DNA of 55,284 nucleotides, counting the filler, from Circinaria calcarea (taxonomy: Eukaryota), in the NCBI GenBank assembly GCA_051942165.1. It is 5 parts of 5 records of this genome, joined end to end, with 100 filler letters (N's around TTAATTAATTAA, not from the genome) between each part and the next. Parts side by side here need not be neighbours in the genome. Positions count along the whole stretch, not along the records: positions 22,182 to 33,157 come from JAVECS010000731.1; 4 more parts are not named here. The stretch is one strand, 5' to 3'. Below, in pieces: positions 3,629 to 51,140 of the stretch. The notes below the pieces were generated by a model. That model was not told where the DNA came from. It searched no databases and saw nothing but the letters and a program-made list of their open reading frames with translations. How positions within the stretch are numbered: the first letter of the stretch is position 1; each line of letters begins with the position of its first letter. The translations under genes were made by a program, and so were the position numbers.

Positions 3629-4335
3629 GTTGGCAGTGGTAAGGGAAAGATTCCTAACAAGGGCTCGATGAGATAGCAGACAGACGGACAGACGCTTTAT
3701 TGAGATGATAGCGTCTGGCGGTATGATGGTTGTGGATGAGTAAAAGAAAGGAGGACAGGTGGCATCGGAGTGACCTTAAGTAGGACCAGAAGAGGCCAAA
3801 TGAGGCGAGCGGCGACGAGAGTGAAGGCGGAAGTGAAGGTAAGAGTCCATCAGGAGCGTACAAGGTGTTGTCCGAATGGAGAGTGGTGCCGGCAAGACTT
3901 CCCGTCTACGTGGGATCAGCGGTGCAGCATGGTCGCCAGGCACGATAGAAGTTAGCGTGGTTCTCTTGCAATAGCCATAGACGGCTCCAACGACCGTTTG
4001 ATTTCATAAGGTACAGGGAGCTGGAATGTAACACCGGAGGATGCCCTCCCTATTATATGTCTTCTTTCTAGGCCATTATCCAGGAAGTCGGTATCGAAAT
4101 TCATGTATCCGTGAAAACAATTAACTAACTATTCACATCATGTCTAAAGAGTCAGAATGCTTCTTGCAAACTAATGCCAGTCAGAACTCAAATCCAAACG
4201 TTATCCAAAGTGACTTAAAAGCCTCACCGCCCACCGCATACAGTCTCAGTAAATTCCCAATTGTATCCTCATCACAACCTGGAGACAGCCAACCCACCCC
4301 AACCCGAACTTCGTCCTCTATCTCAACTGGACAAC

Positions 4336-11002: not shown

Positions 11003-11102
11003 NNNNNNNNNNNNNNNNNNNNNNNNNNNNNNNNNNNNNNNNNNNNTTAATTAATTAANNNNNNNNNNNNNNNNNNNNNNNNNNNNNNNNNNNNNNNNNN
11101 NN
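11003..11102. other. Artificial contig linker (N44-TTAATTAATTAA-N44)
   Basis: Six-frame stop linker embedded in Ns, identical at four positions. Confidence 0.98.
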
Positions 11103-20424: not shown

Positions 20425-21881
20425 ATGGCGTCTGCAAACACAAGTAGAATCGTCCAGCTTGCAGCGGCTATTCAGTCCCATACAATCAAGGTGGATGCCT
20501 ACCTTACCACGCACGGCCTTCCATCATTATCATTCGATGCCGAAATTCCCTCTCTACCCCCAGACACCGAAGCTTCCCGGATCTCTATTCTCGAAGCCAC
20601 AGACGAGATGGCGGATCTGATGCTCGGGCCTCGTCAGCTTGCCGAGTGTAATCCGCCTCAGGTTAATATGAAATCTCTATGCTGTATACTGTGATTGCTG
20701 ACGCAATTCCAACAGCACACTTCGCTCCTGGGCATCCAAGCTATCAGTCGATATGGCATTGCAAGCCAGGTCGGAACAGACGAAGAAGTAACGTTTACGG
20801 AGCTGGCTGAACGATGTAAACTTCCCGCCGACGATCTCCGGCGTCTTCTGCGGCAAGCAATGTCGAGGCATATCTTCAAGGAGCCACGCAAAGGCTACGT
20901 TGCTCATACCGCCGCATCGAGAATTCTTGCCACGTCTCGAGGTATCAACGACTGGGTCTATATGGCTTTGGATGAGATGTGGCCATCGGCTGCACACATG
21001 CTGGACGCTATGGATAAATGGAAAGGCTCAGAAGAAGCCTACGAGACAGTCGGTGATCAGCTTCCTGATAAGATGGATAAGCGGAAACTCGCTTCTAATA
21101 AACCTTTTCTTCAGGGATTCAACCTTGCCAAGGACACCAAAGACTCGTTTTTCGATAGTATGAAGGATCATCCACGCCGGAGAGACGCGTTCTCCAACGT
21201 CATGAGCTACGTACATTCCCGGCAAGGCATTGGATACTCTCTGTCGCATCTTCTTTCAAGCTATAACTGGGCTTCAGTCGGCACTATCGTCGATATTGGA
21301 GGGGGAACCGGTTCTACGAGTGCGGACCTTGCTCGAAATTACCCATCGATCCGTTGTATTGTCCAAGACCTGCCCGATATTGTTGCTCAGGGCCGCGAGC
21401 AAGTCGGAAGCGATGTGGCCGGGCAGATTACCTTTATGGCGCACGATTTCTTCCTGGAACAGCCAGTCAAGGATGTAGATGTGTATTTTCTTCGCTGGAT
21501 CCTGCACGATTGGTCGGACAAGAAGGCTATATCTATTCTAAAGAATCTGATCCCGGCTCTAAAGCATGGGGCCAATATTATCCTCCAGGAGTTCGTGATT
21601 CCTGAACCTGGTGTTCTCTCCTTCTATTATGAAAAGGTTTTGAGGTAAAACTCGGTTACGTCCGGTGCCCTGCCTAATATTACCTGCTAATAATATTTAA
21701 CAGATATTTTGATCTCGCTATGAAAATAAGCTTTAATTCAAAGGAACGAGAGATAGAGGACTGGATACAGCTACTTATAAATGCTGATTATCGTTTTAAA
21801 TTCGTCGGTGCAAAACTACCCCCTGGGTCTAATATGGCAATTATCCACGCTCGCTGGGAGGAAAATACCCTATCTATATAG
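20425..21881 (+). CDS. O-methyltransferase family 2 (fungal secondary metabolism)
   Basis: N-terminal dimerisation/wHTH region, IVDIGGGTG, IVQDLP, FMAHDFF, LRWILHDWSD, last exon NSKERE..W. Confidence 0.9.
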
Positions 21882-22081: not shown

Positions 22082-22181
22082 NNNNNNNNNNNNNNNNNNN
22101 NNNNNNNNNNNNNNNNNNNNNNNNNTTAATTAATTAANNNNNNNNNNNNNNNNNNNNNNNNNNNNNNNNNNNNNNNNNNNN
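22082..22181. other. Artificial contig linker
   Basis: N44-TTAATTAATTAA-N44. Confidence 0.98.
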
Positions 22182-22489
22182 GGGGGGGGGGGTGCGTGGG
22201 GGAAGCACTGGGAGGCGAGAAAACTGTGTTCTCGTCTCATGTATATAGGAAGTTGAAGCTATTCATAGGTTCTTATATGGTCAGATTTGCGTAGACTATA
22301 AGTGAAGTACCGTATCATAGCAATTTGTATGTACTGTGGCTCTATATAAAGCAATCTAAATCAGGTAAGGTGGGTGTGTGTCCGGAGCCAGATGGGTAAA
22401 TCGGCCCTATTTGAGGCCTACGGCGCCTTTCTCATCTTCATACTTCGTACAACTATATCATCTCATCACCGCCAGCTGTACTGCCAGAA

Positions 22490-23487
22490 ATGCAGCCGTT
22501 TGATAGTGAGACCTCGGAAACTTTTCTCAAGCATGCTCCTTTCCATGACTGGGACGATAAAAGGCCTAATCGACGCATGCGACACGCCCTCTGGCTATCT
22601 TGTTCCCTTAACGTCCTTCTCGCGCTCTCCTGGGTTGGCTTCATTTTTACACAGCGGCTACCGTCGTCATCTAGATCTTCTGCTTGTATACGGCCGCTCG
22701 AAGGTAAGAGTATATCCATGTTTTCTTGCCGGATTCCAACTCATGGAGCCTCGCAGATATCTATGATGATTTTGTGTCTACTATCCGCCATACCTCTATC
22801 CGTTATGATACCGACCCATCAGTGAATGATCTCGATTTCAAAATCTATTGGGGTCGACATTGGTTTGAGAACTCGCCTCAAGCGATCGACGAGTTATGGC
22901 AAGACCTCGCAAGCAGTAAGAAAGAAGCAAGCTCGTCCAGGTTGCCAGTTTACGAGCCCCGCCAGTACAAGTCCTGAGCATCACTGCCGAAGAGGCCGCA
23001 AAACTTCCTATCCCAACTGCTGGCGACCCAGATTCGCCGGGCAAGTTCGCGGTCTCGCCCCAAGTTTTTCACGATGTGCATTGCTTAGTATGTGCTTCCT
23101 TCTGTCTATTCCTCACTTTCCATTGCAAGCTTGACCGTTGCCTTTCAAGCATTATATCCGGAATCATGCTATGGGTTATGCGCCAATACATAACGAGACT
23201 GCGAGTAAGCATCTTGTTCACGTAGGTAAGGTGACTTCTTCATCTACTTCCATATATTAAGTTGCTGATGCTAGTACCATAAAGAGCACTGCCTAGGTAC
23301 TCTTCGCCAGAGTATCATCTGCGAGGGAAGTCTCCAGCCTGTGGTCTATACCTTAATTAACGGCACCGCTTACGCTAATCCTGGTGCTACACCTCGGACA
23401 TGTCGTGACTGGAGTATGATATGGGATTGGGGCAAGCATAGAGACATCACGAATGGAAGTGTTGGTAGAGATGGCAAGAAACACTAG
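22490..23487 (+). CDS. DUF3328/UstYa-like oxidase (copy 1)
   Basis: Five exons. N-terminal TM (SLNVLLALSWVGFIF), IDELWQDL, motif 1 VFHDVHCL, motif 2 HVEHCLGTLRQSIIC, C-terminal RTCRDW. Confidence 0.92.
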
Positions 23488-23646
23488 TTAATGATAGTCC
23501 TATACTTCTTAACGCGATAGCAGCCTATTACTCTTCCTAATCGCAAATAGTTCCTGAATCAGTCGAGATAACAACTTCCATCCAACGTGAAGGAGACCAT
23601 AGAAGAAGGCGTCTAAGCCACACAAAAAGCCATTCGCCTCGACGAC

Positions 23647-23978
23647 CTAAGCTTCTTCATACCTAGGATATGCGTTGGCTTGAGCGGTCAGTGATAACTT
23701 GCCTCTGAAGACTCACCCAAATGGAGGAAAGGGTTGGCTGTTCACGGAAAGTTAAAATTACTCAAGTTCTAAAGGTAGGAACTTACCCTACAAAGGGACG
23801 AGGTCAGTATATGCATGGACCGAGTCGGGAAGAGACACATAGAATTATCAGACCCACCTTTGACGAACACGTTAACAGACTCAAGGTCAGCTTCGCTGAT
23901 AACCGGTGCTGCTGGTGCGGCTAAGACGGCGGCAGTAGTGAAGACCGCAAGGCTGAAAGAGATCTTAAAAAACTTCAT
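23647..23978 (-). CDS. Putative RiPP precursor peptide (52 aa, secreted)
   Basis: Exons 23978-23858, 23787 (1 nt), 23737-23717, 23662-23647 give MKFFKISFSLAVFTTAAVLAAPAAPVISEADLESVNVFVKGQPFPPFGYEEA*. Clear signal peptide. Lies between two DUF3328 genes. Confidence 0.75.
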
Positions 23979-24415
23979 GATGGATCCCTGGTAGAGTTCG
24001 ATGGCGAGAACAGAATCAACAGGTAGGTTAGGGTACTTGATGTGAGAAGGTTAATAGAGGTTTGCGACTAGGAAGGAAACATTTTCTAGGAAATTACAGA
24101 ACAACAACATGATTAAATAAAGCAGGTGGGAGTAGAGCTATTCGAGATCATACCTGAAAAGTGCTACCCCCACTCGACAACGAATACGTGCATCAATAAA
24201 AGGATAATTGCGTTTCATAAGTGTCGGCAAATCTGCAAGCACATGCATGTGGTGTGCCACATGTGTGCCAAGTCTACAAACTAGGTAGGTTCTCAAGGGT
24301 TGTCATCTAGTGAAAAGCAACGCACAGCCTCTTCGAGAAAGTTATCGCCTCGTCACTCTTCGATCTAGCTACTGAACTTGCTGAATTTTAGTTTTTTGGA
24401 TCTTTAACGCCTCTC

Positions 24416-25299
24416 ATGATGGCGAGTAAAGCCTACACATACGAGCCTCTCGACCAGGTTTCCAGGTCAAGCATCGACATCTCCATGATTCAATCACGCA
24501 AGTCTTGGAAATATTTTCGCCTAGATATAAACAGCAGAGCGCTAATTGCTTTTATTGCCATTCTCCTCATAAACAACAGCATCTGGGTCTGGGTACTTGC
24601 GGCGCACGGCGTAACCCAAAGTTCTACTTCGTGGAGTTACTGTAAGTATCCAAATCAAAAATATGACCTGATTTAGGAGAACCCTAATCATAGGCTCTTG
24701 TTGCAAAAGACAACTCCACCACCCAAATATCCAAGTCCTTCCACTGGAATACGCCGTTCAGCAGCGACAATAAAACCGTCTCAAATCATTTATGGGCCGA
24801 ACTGTTTCCTCGTAAACATCTATTCCATCGGATACAACGCGTATATATATTCTAAGACTTCGCAGGTGGAGCTGGACTTGTGACCGTGGACGAGAAATGG
24901 GCCAAGGCCCAAAACCTCCCTATAAGCAAACAAGACCCTACGGATGCTAACCGCATGGTCTACTTCGTGGCTGCTCTGCACCAAGTCCACTGCCTGGTAC
25001 GCGATCGCCATTTTATTGTGAGGTTTCCGATCATGTCGCTAACATTTACCTGGCTGAGCTAGACGGTCATACGCGCCTCTCTTTTCCATTTCAATGAGGG
25101 AAGAGATCAGACCGTCCCTTGGAAGCATGTCACTCACTGTCTGGACAGCTTGCGGCAAGTCGTACTGTGTAAAATGGATGATACCCTTTTGTACACCGAA
25201 GATGCAAATGTGTTTGGTGACGGGCAGGTCCATATTTGCGGCGAGTGGAATGCGTTGTCGCAGTGGGCGGCGGATCATGCGTATGTGCAAGAGCAATGA
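24416..25299 (+). CDS. DUF3328/UstYa-like oxidase (copy 2)
   Basis: Four exons. TM ALIAFIAILLINNSIWVWVL, FHWNTPF..NHLWAEL, motif 1 LHQVHCL, motif 2 HVTHCLDSLRQVVLC, GDGQVHICGEW. Confidence 0.92.
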
Positions 25300-25435
25300 G
25301 GCCGGCTCCATGAAGCCATTAGGAATAAATCACTGGTACCATTGCACGATAGCCCCTCCTAGGCAGCAAGGTTTTGGTTCACTACAAAATTTCCATATAT
25401 TTCTGTACCTTACTGCTTACGCGCTAATTCGAGAC

Positions 25436-26297
25436 CTACACCTTGCCCTTTATCCATATATTCATCCCGATCTTTGACCCTTCGCTCACTGGCAAGCCCG
25501 CATGCAGCACTCGTTCGTCCCCCGTCCCGTTGGCTCCGAGATTGATCCAGAATACCCCACTACCCAAATTGGGCATAACGGCGAGGCCAGTGCGATTTGC
25601 AGTCGTTGAGAAGCGATCCCCGTGCACGTTCTCTGGCGGAGCAGGTAGTCTAGGAAAATAGGTCGCCCCTGCGGTGCAATTTGCGTCGAGGTAGAGGAAA
25701 AAGCTTGCAATGCGGTTGTAATCCTCTCCGCTGGTGCTCATGAGGGGTGTCTCGAACCAGTCGTAGTGCATTGCAAAAAGCGCGGACGGTCCGTACTGGA
25801 CTAGCTGGAGTGCTTCGACGCCTAGGAAGGGGATGAAACCTATCAACATGAGCGCGCGTTGCTTGACGAGTGAGACAATAGCGTCGCCGGTTGGCAAGAT
25901 GCACGAGGAGGATGTGCGGTAGGATGGTGGCGGAGTTTCCTCGTCGTAAGGACTAGTGTAGACTTTGGATGGTTGGAAAAGGGGCTCTCTATATTAGGGT
26001 CAGCTTAAAAGCTCTGCAGTTTGCGGCGCGTAGCAAGGCTGTTTTTAACCCTAGCTTGACGAGGTACTCCGTCTCTCGTGGATGGAGGAATCCATCGAGG
26101 TAGATCATCAGTGGATCGATCGATAGAACCTGTGCGGTGTATCTATGGCTCGTAGAAATTGATATTAGGTCCTGCGGCACATTCGACTTCGATGAAAGCC
26201 ACGTTGTAGCAAGCAAAGAGCCTTGAAGCCATGATATGACGAGGCTGAGAGCAATTGCCATGACAGACATGTGCAACACATACTGCGTGCCCGACAT
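25436..26297 (-). CDS. Prolyl 4-hydroxylase-like Fe(II)/2OG dioxygenase
   Basis: Two exons. N-terminal signal/anchor, LSIDPLMIYLDGFL, RTSSS, EALQLVQY, HYD...LHAGLPVSEGSK (HxD..H..K, the P4H arrangement). Confidence 0.88.
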
Positions 26298-26494
26298 TGT
26301 TCAATAGCGCTGAGAGGCCAGGATAGGGATTCATTCAGGGAGAGCTGGGGAGACAATGGCTCCCACAAGCATCGATTTCAGAACTTGGGCAGTGGTATGC
26401 ACGTCATGTAATTTTAAGGTATGGCAACGGGAGGCAAAGGCCTAGTTCTGTCTTCGTACTCTAGGTGGAGAGCTAATGTGCAGAGCTCACTTTC

Positions 26495-27415
26495 TTAAGC
26501 CACAAGGCCGTGAAACGGCGCATAGCGTCGCACTTTGCCTTCTGTGACACCATACTCGATCTCCGCCTCGTCAAGTATCCTGGCGTCGAAGAACGCTTTG
26601 GCCTCCGTCCAGTCGCCTTGCAGCAGCGCAGCCTGGACCTTATCCCGCGATTACAGCATAAACTCCAGCATGTTCGGAAACCGGTCATCGTCGAGCCAAT
26701 AATTCGAAAACGTGCCGTAAAGCTTGAATTTTGCCGCCCAGGCTTCGAATGATGGATAAGGATAGTGTAGGAGGACGGGGTATTGTCCTTCTGCCTCTTT
26801 CCTGGAACCCTCTTCCTGCTGAGATGCAGGCAAGGTTATAGCGACGCCCTCGTAGCCCACGAACCTGTGTGGTCCGTTAGGCACCACATTCCGGCTTAGC
26901 CTCACGGCCGATTTGCCGTTCCCATACGCCATGAACGCCTTGTCGCTATTCACGCTGAACCAGACACAGTCCATAAACGCATTGCTCGTAGGATGCGAGA
27001 TAGGAATAGCCTCGTGATTCGTGAACGTGACGTGGCCGACGCCCGGGCAAGTCCGCCAGCTTGTGTGACCGTTCTCAAACAGGACCTCATCCTGGTCGAT
27101 ATGCAGCAGCCACCAGCCGTCCGGCTTGTCTGCATGCTGCGCTGGCTGCGTCTGGTCGAGCAGGAAGGATATTGCGTGCTTGAGATTGCTGTTCTGGCGC
27201 AGGCGTAATCGATTGGAGCGAGCCATACGTGGGGCGTCCATTGCGCCGTCGAACAATCTTACGGCTCGGCCCACACACAGACTCTCGAAGATGGGCCGCC
27301 TGGTGGGATCGTCGATGTAGATAATCAGTAATTTACAGCGCTGAAGGTGATAGTCCAGCCAGATAACGAAACTGAGCGCGGGCTCTAGGATCGTGGTGAC
27401 GATTGCGAGGGCCAT
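26495..27415 (-). pseudogene. GT-A fold glycosyltransferase-like protein (KOBITO1/ELD1-like) with premature TAA near C-terminus
   Basis: Intronless. WLDYH..IIYIDDP, RQNSN, WLLHIDQDE (DxD), AYGNGKSAVR, PNGPHRF, VLLHY. TAA at 26651-26653, after which the frame continues (SRDKVQAALL...GLVA*) to 26495. Confidence 0.75.
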
Positions 27416-27596
27416 GGCTAGAGGTAGAAATGGAGAGTTTGTAACCGAGAGAGAGAGACAGACTTTGGGCTCTCGCAGCCTTGAAGACTAACGGATGCTT
27501 TTCCATTCTACGGCTACTTTTGCAGCTCAAAGCAGTCCGAGTTGTCGTGAGAGGGCCAAGGCGCTATATTTTCGTGTCACTACATGCAGTCATCCT

Positions 27597-30500
27597 TTAT
27601 GACTCTTTGGCTCTGCCGCTCGCCTCCCATGCCGCCTTCGCCAGCGCCAGCAGATCATCCTTGTCCATAGCAGCCTCACACATGCTCTTGAACATGCCAC
27701 CCTCCCTCTGGAGAAGCTTCCAAGGATGGTCGAATTCCATAACCTTGCCACGGTCCAACACGATGATCCTATCGTGTTCCACCACTGTTCGAAGTCGGTG
27801 AGCGACTGTAATGACCGTGGACCCCATTTTCCTGATACATCCCTGGATCTTGAGGTCCGTTGTATGGTCGATTGAGGCGGTAGCTTCATCCAGGATCAAT
27901 ATGCTTGACGCTTTGAGGATAGCACGCGCGATGCAAATAAGTTGCCGTTGTCCCTGGGAAATGTTGGAGCCTGACTCGGCAAGAACAAAGGACAGGTCGG
28001 CGAACTTATTGGTTATGGCGGTCGAATCCTGCGGCTTGCTGTGCTTCGACCCAGATCGTGAAGGTGCTCGGGCCAGTCCGCCGCTGTAAGATTCAAGTAA
28101 TCCGACGTTATCGAGAGCGCGGAGTACCTCCTCATCGGTGTGCTCGTCGCATGGGTCCAAGTTGAAACGTAAAGTACCCGCAAATAGTATTGGGTCTTGA
28201 GGTACAGTGGCTAATCTTTGGCGCAGAGCACGCAGGCCAATGTTTTTCGTGTCTACGCCGTCGATGCGGATCTGTCCGTTTTCAACTTCAAGCCCGCGCA
28301 GAAGGGTGAGGACAATGCTGGATTTGCCCGCACCAGTGCGACCGACAATACCGATCTTTTCAAGCGGTTTGATAGCGAAACTAAGTTCGCGGAGAATCTG
28401 ATCTAGGCCTGGAGCATAGCGAGTCGAGACGTTGTCGTATTCGATTACTCCCGTTCTAGGCCAGCCCTCGGATAGATTTGTGTTGTTCATAACTGCTGGT
28501 GCTTGCTGTGGAATATCAATGTACTTTTGAACACGTTGTAGTCTGTAGATATATGTCAGCATTCGAACACCCAAGCGTTGACCGCGACAGGACTTACGCA
28601 GTCACATTCTGCAAGTTTGAGGAATGATACCGCACGAGCCAGAGTACGTGTTCGGAGAACACAATGGCATAGGACATGCTCAGCCCGATTGCCCCCGCAC
28701 TGAGCTTGCCTAAACTCGAGATGGCAAATGAACTTGCGAATAGGGATACAAAGGCACCTATAAGACCAAGTCGAATCGAAAGCCATCTCTCCGTAGCTGC
28801 CGCAAAGAAAGAAGGCCTGTTGGCTCTATCAATTTGAGTAAAGTTACCCGCCGAGTACTGACCCATGGCGCCAAACGCGCGAATGGTGGTGACGCCTGAG
28901 AGCGTCTCACCAAGATGCTGGAAAAGAGGCGCGCGTTGGCTCGATTCAAACTCTTTGAGGTCGCGCGATGCAACAATGTAAACGGCGCCAATGAGGTAGT
29001 AGGCAATACTGATCGGAACTCCCGGGACAAGAAAACTGGGCGTAGTCATCGCTATGAGTATGACAATACCTGCGAGCGCTCCTAGAAAGTGCAAGGTTGC
29101 GATGATGAGCACAGCGAGGTGCTGGTCGACAATCTGCAAGTCTGTGGAGAACCTGCCAATGATCTGGCCGAAAGAGGTATCGTTGAAGAAGATGAAGCTG
29201 GCGTTCATGATAGACTTTATAAGCCGTCGGTGTATCACAGCTGAAGCCTGGAGAGAGCCAAAGGATACCAGGAACAGTCTCAGTAGGCCTACTACCATGT
29301 AAAGGCCAATAATGAGGCCATACATGCCAAAGTAGTAGGTAAGATTAATCCTCTTGGGGCTGAGCTGACAATCGTAGCTACTCTCAGACCGCATGCCATC
29401 CGAGTATTCCTTGGTAGCTTGCTGTCCTGCTTGCGTGTATGCATCGGATAAGTTCCGAACCCACCAGTTGGTGGCAATGGCTCCGAATTGCTGACCTATA
29501 AAGGAGAACACAAGCAGTGGCCAGAAGCTCCAGCCACCCATGCTAGCGAAATACCTAAAGATATCGCGCCACGAGAGCTTTTCATTTCGCTGAAGTTCCT
29601 CGGTAACAGATACGTCTCCATCTGGTCGATCCGCGTCCTCCTGCTGGATAACATCGTGTTTTTTCTTAATCTTTTCCGGTCTTGTTTTAGCTCCTAGAGG
29701 AGTGTCGGAAAATTGGTGGTTTCTTTGACTGCCCTGATCATCGTTATTCGTAGTGAACGAATTGTTGAGTGGGAAATGGAGGCCGAGTTTTGCAAGGTCA
29801 CTCGGGGCCCCCGCTGCAGCCACTTTTCCGTTCTCGAGAGCGACTAAAAAACGGGCATCAGCTGCAGCAAGAGCCAAGTTGTGGGTGACCAGTATACAGG
29901 TTCGGCCCTTGAGAAGAGATCCTTTGATACAATGTTGAAAAATCCATGCGGCAGTATGAGCGTCCACGGCACTGAGGCAGTCATCGAGAAGTAGATGACA
30001 GGCGTTTGAATAAGTAGCTCGCGCCAGCGCAATCCGTTGTTTCTGTCCGCCGGATAGGGAAATACCACGCTCGCCTACCTGTGTGCGCTCGCCTTGAGCA
30101 AGATCTTTGAGGTCAATGGCGAGCGCGCAAGCATCCAGAACCGCTCTATAACGCTCCTCGTTGTAAGGACTGCCGAACAGGATGTTATTACGGATTGTGT
30201 CATTGGTCAGCCAAGCTTCTTGTGCGCAATATGCTACGGCGTCGATTAGGCCAGAGTCTAGATCAACTGGTAAATCCTCACGGTTCACAGCTGCGGGCAT
30301 GCGCACGGCTCCTTTGATAAGTGTCATTTCGCCCAGCAGGGCCAGTAGCATTGAGGACTTGCCGCTGCCAGTCGGCCCGGTAATAATATTGAGCTGTCCG
30401 GATGCAAATTTGATGTTAAGATCTCTTAGAGTAAATTCGTTGCTGACATCGGAATGATCTTTTGAGGTACCGTTGATAACGTAATCCTCTGCGGAAGAGT

Positions 30501-31952
30501 CCCAGCCGAATGTGGCATGCTCGAAGCCAATTTCCGATGAAAAGTAGAGCCGCTGTTGAGGGAGTTGCTTATACTTGCCCGTCTCAGGTTCCTTCAAGAA
30601 AATTTCGACCCGCCTGACAGAGACGAGAGCGTCCTGAATACGAGCAAGCATTCCGACAAACTCGTCTAGGGGTGTTTTGAGAAGGTTGAAATATGAAAGT
30701 GAGGAAAATGCCAACGAGGGAGTCAGAGGCTTCCCCTCTATGATAGCGTAGACAAAGAACGATGTGAAGGTAATAAGCAAGGGCATACTATACCAGATGG
30801 TTGCAGCAATGGACCAAAGAATATATCGAGCGCGTAGAGCTCGAAGTTCTTCTGTTCTTTTCTCATCGATTCTCTGCTCAAAGCAAGACTCCCAAGCAAA
30901 GAATTTGATGACACGAATACTGCGGACCATTTCGGTCGTGCTCTGGATCCTTCGGTCCGATGCGGCCATGACTTGCAGCTGAATCGCGCCAAACTGTCGA
31001 GTAATTTGAGAGTTCAGCGGCACCACGGCGGTCATTAAAGCAACGCCAGCAAGGGCACTGAAACCTAGCGTGGAATACAGCAAAGAAATAGCTATAAGGA
31101 TTTGCACCGGAACTGATCCCCAGACTTGATGCATGCTGGCTCCTGCATCGGCAATTTTGAAAGCGTCCGTGGTAAGGAGGTTCATGATGGTTGCGACATC
31201 AGCCTGCGGGGCCGTTTCGGTTCCTGGCGGTGACTTTTCCGTTCTCTCAGACAGGGAGGAGGCAATTCGCCGTCTCAATGCTTTAGCGTATATTTCGCTG
31301 ATTATGATTGACCTCAAGCGGAAACCGATCTTCTGCCCGATCCACAAGGCACGACCTTCTGCAACGGCCGCTAAGATGCTGGTAAAGAACAGAAGAGCCA
31401 CATAGAGCCACGCTTGCTCCACAGTGATCTTACTCTTGTCTTCCACGTACTGCAAGATAGTCTGAAGGAGCAAAGTTGGAACAAATATGAGCACTCCGTA
31501 CAGAATCGCCCAGATTGATTGGATTGCGAACAACTTTTGAAAGTGTCTAAGCAGGCGGGATAGAAGACTAGGACCTTGACTATACATGGATCAGCTAAGC
31601 TCTAAATCTCAAAAGTGAAGAAAGGGATTATAGCTAACCTGGCTTCCTGAAAGGCATAGGCATTGGCGCTCGCGATATCTGCTGAGCCTAGGGAAGGCAT
31701 ATCTTGGAGCTTCAGTCCTCGGTTGTGCCAACCTTTTAACAGAAGACTATCCATCCAAGCAAAACTCAACTCGCCTAGTGTTGTTGCACAGAGCTCCCGC
31801 TCTGGCCTGCGCCATGTCAGAGCAGTAATGAGCACGAGCGCCATTGTTATGATCAATGCAAGATGAGACTCTTGTAAGGCGAGTTGCACCTTGGTGACGG
31901 TAGTGCTCCACTCCATCATCAATTGGCGGCTTTCCGGTATTGAGGGGAGCAT
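27597..31952 (-). CDS. ABCC/MRP-type ABC transporter (Ybt1-like)
   Basis: TMD-NBD-TMD-NBD. Walker A GPTGSGKS and GRTGAGKS, signatures LSGGQKQR and ISQGQRQ, lasso motif LSFAWMDSLLLKG. Two introns. Confidence 0.93.
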
Positions 31953-33157
31953 TCAATAGTAGGTGATCACGATGAAAGTAAGCATGCATATGCCTGTATC
32001 CTAAGGACCGTACTGCGAGGGAAGGAGATCGGAGGCGGATTCTCCTATATTTGGCAAGACGTGTGGGGGGAAAAAAAGGCATGGAGATGTGGTTAGAAAA
32101 TGGACGTACAAACATAGGTGGGTAGTTACCTCGAGGGGGGCACACCAAGCAGCTAGCGTTTGCATAGATAAATACGGTGGCATGAATCGAGGTTAGTGCA
32201 ACGTACTACGGTGGCATGAATCGACGTTCCGGCAACAATGATTTTTCGAGATTTTTTTTCGGAAAACCAAAATCGCTTTTCGACTTCGCGCACGCCAGTT
32301 TCTATCGTTCCTATTATAGTGTTGAACTTTACGAGGTTGGTAGATACTCGATAAAGCGTGATAGAATGGGGCACTGTGGAGCGTCTCTTATTACGTAGTC
32401 ACAATGCGGTATGTGAGGCAGTTCATGTATCGTATTCTGTCAAACCTTTGCGGTTAGATCCTCGGGCGGACGTTATTCCGCCCGTGCCCACACATAGATA
32501 GATTCTTCTGCTGCGTTACACACGCAGCATAGCAGACCATACACACGCACTTGTAGCAGCAGTTATTCTCTCGCTCCTTTATCAATGCCATAGTGACTCA
32601 GTAGCTTGACATATTCCTGTATGGGCGGAATTTATATGAAAGTGTGAAAAGTCTATGGAATTATGAGGCAGAAAACAACGCTTTTATGTGTGTTACGTGA
32701 AGGCGCTAATACTTCGCATATTACACTCCCGAGTCTACACTCGCGAGATCACGTGCATAGTGCTAAGTTCGACATATAGTAATTACTATGGCAGCAGCGA
32801 CAGCGCATATAATTAAATAGCTAGCTTGAGATAATACTGTTACGAAAGCAAATCTCTGTGTCAGGGCGCTGCAATCCTTGGGCTCAATGAGGAATATGTT
32901 AAGTCCCGATTGGTGATAGCACGGTTACATAGGGTGTAGTCGATCTGTTGCCCTAGGCTCAATAGTATGGAGTCTATTGAACACGGTCTATAAGCATGCT
33001 ATTCTAATGAGCGCAGAACAGCCTGCCTATATACTGAGGTTGCTTCCCTTGCTCCCGTTGCTCCCGTTCTGCCCGTCGTGAGCAACCGCACTGCTCCCTA
33101 TGCTCCCTATGGTTACACAGAGCACCAGTGTAAGCAACCCGGAGTATTGTTCCTCCC

Positions 33158-33257
33158 NNNNNNNNNNNNNNNNNNNNNNNNNNNNNNNNNNNNNNNNNNN
33201 NTTAATTAATTAANNNNNNNNNNNNNNNNNNNNNNNNNNNNNNNNNNNNNNNNNNNN
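33158..33257. other. Artificial contig linker
   Basis: N44-TTAATTAATTAA-N44. Confidence 0.98.
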
Positions 33258-35543: not shown

Positions 35544-37203
35544 CTACCGCCTCTTCGGAACCATGACCCTTGCCTTGGGAAACTCCAACGGCAAGCGGAG
35601 TTTCGCGATCCCATGTGCCAGGCGTTGGCCCTTTGAGAGGTTTAGCCGTGCTAGCTCCGATTCCGTGGGGGTGCCGTAGCGGCAACCGAGTTCGCGGAAG
35701 TATTGGGAGATGCTGTGGGGAACAGGGGGGCTAAGTAAATGAAATACTTTGGGTGGCTTGGGCCGGAAGGGTGGGAATGGTCAAAGGAAGGGAAAGGGAG
35801 GGAAAGGGAGAGAAGAAGAACAACGACTTACATTTTCGGCTCTAGTTTGAGGTCTTCTCGCAGGTCGTACGTGTCGATTTCATAGTTGTCGACTGCGAGG
35901 GCCAAGGCACAGATGTGTGTCATTAGGTTGTCAATGGCCCATTTGTTTAGAGTCCTGTGAGGCGGTTTCAGTAGGGAGCGCTATTCGAATGACTACTGTT
36001 ACTCACATCTCTGGCGCAAATCGTTTCCTCACCCCCTCCAGGGTCCCCTCGCCTATTTCTGGACCGACCGCCTTCCCAATAGCCTCGTTTCCGGGAAACT
36101 TCTTGCCTCCCTTCGACCCTGGTTTCAGGGCTGCATTCCAATCGAGCAACAGGAGTAAAAATCTCAACGTCTTCAACCTCATCACATCTTCGGTTTGTAC
36201 AATCCGTACCAGTCTCCGCGAAACAAATCTGCTGCTGGTTTTGACATCCTCGCCCTTCCTCACCGCCTCTTGCCAATTCCTCACACTTAAAACTCGGAGA
36301 GCATCCAGACCCACTAGATCCTCAACCTTGTAGACATCCGCAGGTGTTTCGGCATCGAGGTTCGGTCTTGGTCTTGGCTTGCCTTCGTCGACCACGGCCT
36401 GAAGCTCTTCGCGAGAGGGTATGGTGGTGGAGGATTGAGACATCGATTCTATAACTGCGGACGCTGCGGGGTCCAGAGAGCGATTCTGAGTGGGTTTGGA
36501 CGGAGAGGTAATGGCATTTTCGGTTATGGCGCGGATGGCTTTCTGGGATTTCTTGGTACCAAAGGCTTGGCCAAGAACAGAGCGAGCGGATAGTTTCTAG
36601 ATTGTGGTGTCAGTGTGCTATTTGGAACTTCTCTACAAGAACAAAAGTACATTAAGGGGAGCCGCCTCGTCTTCGGTGCCATTGACCGTCGTTTCAGATC
36701 GTAAGACCCCGCGAACCACAAGCTTCCGGGCTTGTACCAATTGCAAGTCTCCGGTTTTGGGATCGTAAACACCGAGATAATGCTTTAGCAAGCTGTCCGC
36801 CCCGCTGTATTCCTCTTCCCGAGCGGTGTAATCAATTTTAGGATGAGCTGAGGTATGCAAGAGGAGCTCGGTAGTTGATATTGCGGTCCTTCCAGCCCCT
36901 GTATGGTGATCATCTCGGGGTTTCGTGTATACCTCGAGGGGTACGTTTGTAGGAACGTTCAGTCCAGGAGTAGTCGCTTTTCGTAGTCAGTTATGGGAGA
37001 TACGCTTTCCAACTTGGATAGGTAAACACCAATCCACTAATGTAGTACCTAGAAAAGTAGAATGACATACCAATCACAGGAGCCCAGTCCCCTACATTCT
37101 GCAGAATGGAGAAATTGACAGTCTGCGAGGTAGACTCCGTCACCCTCTTTTTCCTCGGGCGTTCACCTTCCTCGTGCCTTTGTTTTCTCTTCTTTTCTGA
37201 CAT
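35544..37203 (-). CDS. RPA49: RNA polymerase I subunit A49
   Basis: Multi-exon. IDYTARE, HYLGVYDP, LGQAFGTKKSQKAI, PNLDAETPADVY, YFRELGC, AKLRLPLEFP. Confidence 0.88.
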
Positions 37204-44224: not shown

Positions 44225-44324
44225 NNNNNNNNNNNNNNNNNNNNNNNNNNNNNNNNNNNNNNNNNNNNTTAATTAATTAANNNNNNNNNNNNNNNNNNNN
44301 NNNNNNNNNNNNNNNNNNNNNNNN
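44225..44324. other. Artificial contig linker
   Basis: N44-TTAATTAATTAA-N44. Confidence 0.98.
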
Positions 44325-50004: not shown

Positions 50005-50218
50005 TTATGGTTGCAGGGACAATAGATGTTAGCGTGGGTTTCGACCAACCCGGGTACACTCAGCAAAGACTATATGAATTCTTTCGAAAAAGAGGTGTAA
50101 TATGGAGGGCATCCTCCGGTGTATATTCCGTCTTTCTGTATGAAAGCAAACTGTCGTTTGGGCCTTCTATGATTATGTAAGATAACCACACTAACATCTA
50201 TTATGCCTGCTACCATAA
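50005..50218 (+). mobile_element. ~210-bp MITE copy (RIP-degenerate)
   Basis: Decayed TIRs TTATGGTTGCAGGGACAATAGATGTTAG / CTAACATCTATTATGCCTGCTACCATAA. Internal sequence is the reverse complement of the units in 50309-50703. Confidence 0.75.
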
Positions 50219-50220
50219 TA

Positions 50221-50846
50221 CTGTGGTCGCATGGGAAATAAATTATAGCTCGGCGCTAGTAGAAAAATATTTATTATAATTAAATTCTGAAAAGGGCTTT
50301 ATTATTTACTGTGGTCGCAGGCATAACAGATATTAGTATGGTTATCTTGCAATTATTATAGAAGGCCTAAACGATATTTTAATTTCATACAGAAAGACGG
50401 AATATATACCGGAGGATGCCCTCCATCTTATACCTCTTTCTCGAAAGAATTCATACAGCTTTTACTGAGCATACCGGAGTTAATCGAAGCCCGCGTTAAC
50501 ATCTATCAGATATTAATATAATTATCTTGCAATTATCATAGAAGGCCCAAACGACATTTTGATTTCATACAGAAGGACGGAATATACACCGGAGGATGCC
50601 CTCCATATTACACCTCTTTTTCGAAAGAATTCATACAGCCTTTGCTGAGCATACCGGAGTTGGTCGAAGCCCGCGCTAACATCTGTTATGCCTGCGACCA
50701 CAGTACTTCCAGTGTTTCGTTTGCATGCCACTTGCACCAATCAGAATAGGAAATGGAGTTAAAATACTTGGAAAATTTTAATAGTCTGAGTAAGGATTTT
50801 AGTGACTTTAGCGCTGAGCTAAGATTTATTTCCCATGCGACCACAG
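50221..50846. mobile_element. Non-autonomous TIR element (Tc1/mariner-type, TA-flanked) hosting a nested MITE
   Basis: TA|CTGTGGTCGCATGGGAAATAAAT ... ATTTATTTCCCATGCGACCACAG|TA. Confidence 0.8.
50309..50703 (-). mobile_element. Nested MITE, tandem dimer of the ~200-bp unit
   Basis: TA|CTGTGGTCGCAGGCATAACAGAT ... ATCTGTTATGCCTGCGACCACAG|TA. Internal direct duplication (junction near 50506) whose copies differ mainly by CA>TA and TG>TA changes. Confidence 0.82.
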
Positions 50847-51140
50847 TAGGGTATGCCACCCCAAGATCGAGACGGAGGCCTCGTGTAAGCTCGATGCTAA
50901 ACCAGCTGCCTTATTATCCCTTTGCATGAGGGTGACAGGTGTAAGTTGTTTCTATAAGAGTATGCCTCATGACAAGGACAATTGAGGATACTTGGTTCAT
51001 AAAGGAGCTTTGCCAATGCCAGGTTCTAACGGAGAATATGTATAACCGTGGGATAAGTTGAATCATGATATCAAGACCAGAACCTACCCAATATAAGACA
51101 ACCCCGCTGCAGGACCGGTATCGTTATTCTGTCCTCTTCC

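Follow-up and report, generated by a model that had tools for sequence, protein, structure and literature searches.

Exons of a single base are already known. The first known case, a single-nucleotide exon in Arabidopsis, was found experimentally (PMC4674806), and Nelson & Syed (2026) described a one-base exon in 24 Fusarium CYP621A genes, by the count given there the second known case and the first in fungi (PMC12940212). As described in that paper, the Fusarium exon was inferred because an intron was twice as long as the median and by comparison with an intronless relative; SRA reads then confirmed it (PMC12940212). Work on stwintrons describes how fungal spliceosomes can re-use the junction left by an earlier splice (PMC12403724, PMC6616335, PMC5587772). 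Regarding peptides made in UstYa-containing clusters, typical dikaritin precursors are described as having repeated cores with Kex2 sites, and UstYa substrates of the secretory pathway as beginning with a signal peptide (PMC12048977). According to the same account, UstYa proteins are found in non-RiPP clusters too, and lichen UstY clusters have been reported without recognisable precursors, a single core peptide being raised as one explanation (PMC12048977).

We analysed a stretch of the minus strand (23978-23647) that we suggest is a real mini-gene of a lichen-forming ascomycete, overlooked by gene predictors. Within it, two complete canonical introns lie exactly one base apart (Table 1). We put the probability that this base, a G, is kept as a one-base exon in a major transcript at roughly 0.5; based on the splice signals, such an exon is credible but unproven, and it is the most likely of the splice outcomes. 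The phenomenon being known already, the locus would be a further member of it: if cDNA bears it out, the number of reported one-base exons would rise to three, and that of fungal ones to two, following the count in PMC12940212. It would also be the first such exon in a gene for a small secreted peptide or of RiPP type, and annotation pipelines would have to accept exons of fewer than 3 nt.

The closest comparison is with the Fusarium CYP621A genes. In both cases, two short introns surround a single G in the context AG/G/GT, which supplies the middle base of a Gly codon; in both, the stretch looks like one intron of about double the usual length, and predictors overlook the exon (PMC12940212). 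The two cases differ in what argues for the base. In CYP621A, as reported, it is required by the alignment with an intronless paralogue and by a conserved PKG motif, and the exon is conserved in 24 genes and backed by reads (PMC12940212), whereas the searches for the mini-gene returned no homologue and its exon is a candidate seen in the DNA sequence of one locus. The Arabidopsis exon resembles the candidate described here in being one base between two spliceosomal introns, but it is found in a plant (PMC4674806). Unlike in either of these cases, no conserved protein calls for the extra base in the mini-gene. Stwintrons and the mini-gene have in common the consecutive splicing of adjacent or nested short fungal introns; in a stwintron, however, the internal intron interrupts a splice motif of the outer one and no exon base is left, while in the mini-gene both introns are complete and have one base between them (PMC12403724, PMC6616335, PMC5587772). 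A stwintron reading was rejected because introns 1 and 2 are each complete on their own: after in silico removal of either, the other keeps intact signals, and no outer intron is needed.

Table 1. Features of the mini-gene and of the genes around it, in window coordinates; exons and introns are candidate assignments
Feature	Position	Strand	Length (nt)	Remarks
O-methyltransferase ORF	20695-21648	+		Pfam Methyltransf_2, 103.7 bits; on the preceding contig
UstYa/DUF3328 gene 1	22490-23487	+		last exon Pfam UstYa, 42.0 bits (cut-off 25)
Exon 4, coding part in the favoured reading	23647-23662	-		last Gly base, YEEA, stop TAG (23649-23647)
Intron 3	23716-23663	-	54	donor GTGAGT; branch ACTGAC 23692-23687, A at 23688, 25 nt from the TAG end; acceptor TAG
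Exon 3	23737-23717	-	21	all three frames open
Intron 2	23786-23738	-	49	donor GTAAGT (perfect consensus); branch TTTAAC 23756-23751, A at 23752, 14 nt from the end; acceptor CAG
Candidate one-base exon G	23787	-	1	between introns 1 and 2; context AG/G/GT
Intron 1	23857-23788	-	70	donor GTGGGT; branch ACTGAC 23808-23803, A at 23804, 16 nt from the 3' end; acceptor TAG
Exon 1	23858-23978	-	121	ATG at 23978 to G at 23858
UstYa/DUF3328 gene 2	24416-25299	+		last exon Pfam UstYa, 45.3 bits (cut-off 25)
Prolyl-4-hydroxylase-like 2OG-Fe(II) oxygenase	25436-26300	-		2OG-FeII_Oxy_3, 33.7 bits (cut-off 27)
ABC transporter	27597-31952	-		two ABC_tran and two ABC_membrane regions

The mini-gene and its neighbourhood

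The window, that is, the whole stretch of 55,284 bases that was analysed, is made of five unlinked contigs of ~11 kb each, joined end to end by four N(44)-TTAATTAATTAA-N(44) linkers (11003-11102, 22082-22181, 33158-33257, and 44225-44324); gene neighbourhood across the linkers is therefore not real. The mini-gene is carried by the piece at 22182-33157 (10,976 nt). Directly after the linker, this contig opens with a run of G (22182-22194), which looks like a sequencing or assembly end artefact.

Reading of the minus-strand sequence bore out every coordinate that the preliminary description had given for intron 1, the single G and intron 2. Each of the three introns has a complete set of signals of its own, consisting of a donor, a branch point 14-25 nt from the acceptor, and a YAG acceptor. 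The donor of intron 1 is sub-consensus and weaker than GTAAGT or GTGAGT, which is the chief weakness of the one-base exon reading, and intron 3 has an alternative acceptor, AAG at 23679, which lies 9 nt from the branch A and would give a 38-nt intron. Exon 1 begins with an ATG that has A at -3 and contains an ORF of 40 codons. Judged by eye, its start is signal-peptide-like, with a basic n-region (MKFFK), a core of 15 hydrophobic residues and small residues ahead of AP, making cleavage likely near VLA/AP; a 20-residue pro-region that ends in VFVK follows, and exon 1 closes with the opening base of a further codon. If kept, the G would stand second in a Gly codon (G-G-C) whose outer bases come from exon 1 and exon 3, and in this frame exon 3 encodes QPFPPF plus two bases of another Gly codon.

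The mini-gene sits in the gap between two UstYa genes, and the oxygenase and the ABC transporter are on the same contig. UstYa gene 1 has several short introns and is convergent with the mini-gene, with ~160 nt from stop to stop, while UstYa gene 2 is divergent from it, with ~437 nt from ATG to ATG, and has an N-terminal ORF with a hydrophobic segment. The HxxHC motif is characteristic of the UstYa family, and HxxHC-like motifs occur in the ORF translations of both genes. The oxygenase has 39 homologues at E<=1e-10, some of which are named prolyl 4-hydroxylase by their source. Among its closest relatives are two proteins, 67-68% identical, that come from two further MAGs of lichen fungi. Between the oxygenase and the ABC transporter lies an open frame of 278 codons (26651-27487, minus strand) with no Pfam match at E<=0.01.

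Distant relatives of the UstYa genes were found in metagenome contigs, where the last exon of UstYa gene 1 gave 333 pattern matches that reduced to four loci with 37-46% identity over 28-57 residues (L001, 1663-1836; L002, 4001-4174; L003, 4001-4084; L004, 4001-4099). The L001 and L002 matches are identical. When all ORFs of >=30 aa from 22182-26400 were compared with these four loci by tblastn, only UstYa C-termini were matched and nothing corresponded to the mini-gene. Against longer proteins, the last exon of UstYa gene 1 gave eight candidates, none of them at E<=1e-5.

Intron clustering, intron sizes and relatives

To count introns that arise by chance, we used a loose definition of a candidate intron, namely a donor GT[AG]NGT, a YTRAY 8-30 nt before a non-G AG, and a length of 45-100 nt. 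On both strands of the whole window, 74 such candidates from 52 donors were found, against 65.7 and 42.1, respectively, in first-order Markov simulations. Because this is barely an enrichment, single candidate introns mean little. The window has one tandem pair with a gap of 0-10 nt, which is the one at the mini-gene locus, compared with a mean of 0.37 in 100 simulations; for tandem pairs exactly 1 nt apart the simulated mean was 0.05, and at least one such pair occurred in 4 of the 100 simulations. Three candidate introns in a row, each <=60 nt from the next, were found once in the 55 kb on both strands, again at the mini-gene, and in none of 200 simulations. An accidental origin of the three-intron array is very unlikely, and since the chain goes beyond chance, we argue that the whole stretch is a real, spliced mini-gene.

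Intron lengths were surveyed in a separate census of candidates that connect two stretches open for 40 codons and whose retention would disrupt the frame (156 donors). The lengths peak at 50-60 nt, a class that holds 28 of the 156 donors compared with ~9 expected from a flat background of false candidates, and only 2 of the 156 have candidates of <=40 nt. For introns in this genome, 49, 54 and 70 nt are typical lengths. An intron of 120 nt would have roughly double the usual size, and one of 38 nt is at the extreme low end.

The searches for relatives of the peptide returned no true match. Exon 1 (40 aa) had no candidate among proteins of 22-70 aa in a collection of 5.8 billion. The 69-aa unspliced ORF, compared by phmmer with 1.84 billion representative proteins, gave two matches at E<=0.001; both are spurious because long repeat proteins match through many copies of a short segment. 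Compared with metagenome contigs, the same ORF gave 592 pattern matches, of which 0 were confirmed. As exon 1 is in no library protein, the mini-gene is evidently unannotated, and the proposal that the gene had been missed by predictors fits this absence of exon 1 from the proteins of either library.

The same results would also fit if there were no expressed gene here and the locus were a decayed remnant or a chance ORF with splice-like motifs, or if its frame were an artefact of one wrong base in the draft assembly of a metagenome. A homologue is absent among the 1.84 billion representatives, exon 1 is in no recorded protein of either library, and the contig is ~11 kb long and begins with the poly-G run. 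This explanation would, however, require that a signal-peptide-like start with A at -3 and three consensus-grade introns of typical size coincide, and that they do so in a 0.9-kb gap between two UstYa genes; moreover, RiPP precursors are described as often being without detectable homologues (PMC12048977). We consider it unlikely that the locus is not an expressed gene.

Other explanations of the sequence were tried and set aside. The reading of the mini-gene as a structured or noncoding RNA was rejected, as the region had no Rfam match at E<=1 and its RNA fold had a z-score of 0.10, indicating no unusual structure. Duplication of an intron as the origin of the array was rejected because the alignment of the three introns is poor, only 12 of its 76 columns being invariant. 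The core-like DNA motif has no second copy on the mini-gene contig. A match with one mismatch at 35764-35780 (minus strand) was considered as a possible paralogue and is taken as chance; it lies on another contig, in a pyrimidine-rich stretch that appears to be intronic sequence of an unrelated gene. The peptide motif had no match in the literature searched.

Splice outcomes and their products

Short fungal introns are recognised one by one by the spliceosome (intron definition). Given individual recognition, introns 1 and 2 would be removed separately, leaving the G between them. We propose that the pre-mRNA has three ordinary short introns (70, 49 and 54 nt), of which introns 1 and 2 would be spliced one after the other, in either order, with the single G staying in the mRNA. 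Both orders are compatible with the signals in silico: if intron 1 is removed first, the donor of intron 2 is left intact in the context AGG/GTAAGT, and if intron 2 is removed first, the acceptor of intron 1 is left intact as TAG followed by the G. The retained G would then set the frame, so that the putative signal peptide and 20-residue pro-region are followed by the proline-rich GQPFPPFG.

With all three introns removed and the G kept, the enumerated product has 52 aa and ends in K-GQPFPPFG-YEEA. If the AAG acceptor is used for intron 3, the core GQPFPPFG is unchanged and a different four-residue tail follows, and if introns 1 and 2 are removed and intron 3 is retained, a stop comes right after the core, at the TGA inside GTGAGT. 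With the G kept, GQPFPPFG is made in all three outcomes of intron 3. The tail would accordingly be YEEA with the 54-nt intron and four other residues with the AAG acceptor, and translation would end straight after GQPFPPFG with intron 3 retained. In the favoured frame, retention of intron 2 or of intron 3 leads to a stop inside the donor hexamer (TAA in 23786-23781 and TGA in 23716-23711, respectively). Because these stops are within the donors GTAAGT and GTGAGT, each unspliced form ends exactly at the exon border.

The favoured peptide has competitors: at least four further ways of splicing leave a frame open and yield different products. Two products follow if the G is skipped in a single 120-nt intron (23857-23738). 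With the 54-nt intron 3, skipping gives 63 aa, with KANPFLHL and a basic 15-residue tail, and with the 38-nt intron 3 it gives 57 aa, with KANPFLHL followed by ANAYPRYEEA. Both peptides quoted in the preliminary description, K-GQPFPPFG-YEEA for inclusion and KANPFLHL-ANAYPRYEEA for skipping combined with the 38-nt intron, were reproduced. The accompanying argument that the frame must reach YEEA, and that the G is needed for this, did not stand: it is circular because it overlooked that skipping combined with the ordinary 54-nt intron 3 is also open and yields the 63-aa product. As the peptide is without a homologue, homology does not fix the reading frame either.

The 120-nt intron, with GTGGGT, TTTAAC and CAG, is formally valid, both of its products are open, and the 63-aa one has dibasic KK and RR sites. 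For it to be spliced in this way, however, the perfect internal GTAAGT and the perfect ACTGAC...TAG would both have to be ignored, and its length is about twice the local peak of 50-60 nt. We regard a single 120-nt intron as quite unlikely.

Alternatively, intron 1 may not be an intron, in which case the frame would read through 23857-23788 and GTAAGT at 23786 would be the first donor. The product would be a secreted protein with two Cys residues, of 72 or 92 aa depending on the acceptor of intron 3, as the retained intron is in frame for 24 codons with no stop. Retention of intron 1 is possible given its sub-consensus GTGGGT and these 24 in-frame codons; the donor GTGGGT is weaker than GTAAGT and GTGAGT, the 70 nt are free of stops, and AGG/GTAAGT is a good donor context. 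Against this, we estimate that 24 open codons occur by chance in ~1 of 3 cases ((61/64)^24), whereas a perfect ACTGAC 16 nt before TAG, with a GT..GT donor 49 nt upstream, would have to be accidental, as would the three-intron chain that was seen in 0 of 200 simulations. In addition, the phmmer query that included the read-through matched repeat proteins only, and spuriously. Altogether, translation through intron 1 appears improbable.

If intron 1 alone is removed, the product has 41 aa and ends in K-G-stop at the TAA inside GTAAGT. It would be a pre-peptide whose stop lies in GGTAAGT directly after intron 1, as the frame requires, and the downstream introns would be part of the 3'UTR or would be accidental. 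However, at a chance density of ~42 donors per 110 kb, two more candidate introns within 200 nt are improbable, and the same 0 of 200 simulations argue against this outcome, to which we give only a slim chance.

For the inclusion of the G, it also matters that the frame hinges on three consecutive G (23788-23786) in a fragmented metagenome assembly, where an error of one base would alter the reading.

The peptide and its possible modification

The comparison with dikaritins concerns the role of the product. Like the precursors of ustiloxin, phomopsin and asperipin-2a, the mini-gene is a small gene with a putative N-terminal signal peptide beside UstYa/DUF3328 genes and with a transporter nearby (PMC12048977). 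Unlike dikaritins as described there, its product lacks repeated cores and Kex2 KR sites, and there is no tyrosinase on the contig; a single proline-rich stretch is the candidate core, and the neighbouring oxygenase is P4H-like. It would correspond to the 'single core peptide' case raised in the lichen paper (PMC12048977).

Based on this setting, we propose that the two flanking UstYa oxidases and the prolyl-hydroxylase-like oxygenase would act on the peptide as a single-core substrate and that the ABC transporter would export it. That the product is a UstYa-modified peptide is a tentative proposal, which we hold to be possible but not probable. Of the features of dikaritin systems, a UstYa/DUF3328 gene close by is present here in the form of two flanking genes. 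Repeated cores with Kex2 (KR) sites are absent: no repeat was found in any enumerated product, and the favoured product lacks KR. The dibasic KK and RR sites named above belong to the 63-aa product of skipping. A RiPP role of the peptide is plausible but unproven, and what points to it is the neighbourhood. The name 'RiPP core' used in the preliminary description was in this respect too strong, as it derives from the neighbourhood only and the peptide is without the repeats and the Kex2 (KR) sites of typical dikaritin precursors.

It had also been suggested that inclusion versus skipping of the G acts as a switch between cores. This is a conjecture that we judge to be far from probable. A broader proposal combines these elements: in a lichen UstYa cluster, a single-core, Kex2-independent, proline-rich substrate would be encoded in a ~330-nt mini-gene with three introns, its frame would be set by a one-base exon, and one gene would yield two different cores depending on whether the G is included or skipped. 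Such genes would be invisible to predictors, which could explain the missing precursors of lichen UstY clusters. We consider this combined proposal unlikely. If the one-base exon were confirmed by cDNA, UstYa clusters could be seen to hide single-core precursors in multi-intron mini-genes, and the question of the 'missing precursor' in lichens (PMC12048977) could be tested through the intergenic gaps beside UstYa genes.

An O-methyltransferase is among the genes described for lichen UstY clusters (PMC12048977). The window contains an O-methyltransferase ORF (Table 1); because it is on a different contig, it cannot be counted as a neighbour of the UstYa genes or of the mini-gene.

Elsewhere in the window, a dense nest of repeats occupies 50005-50850. 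It includes a 180-nt tandem pair that is 90% identical and inverted arms of 155-169 nt that are 85-91% complementary, and short pieces related to these repeats are found on another contig, at 3961-4066. The nest may be the remnant of a transposon or MITE.
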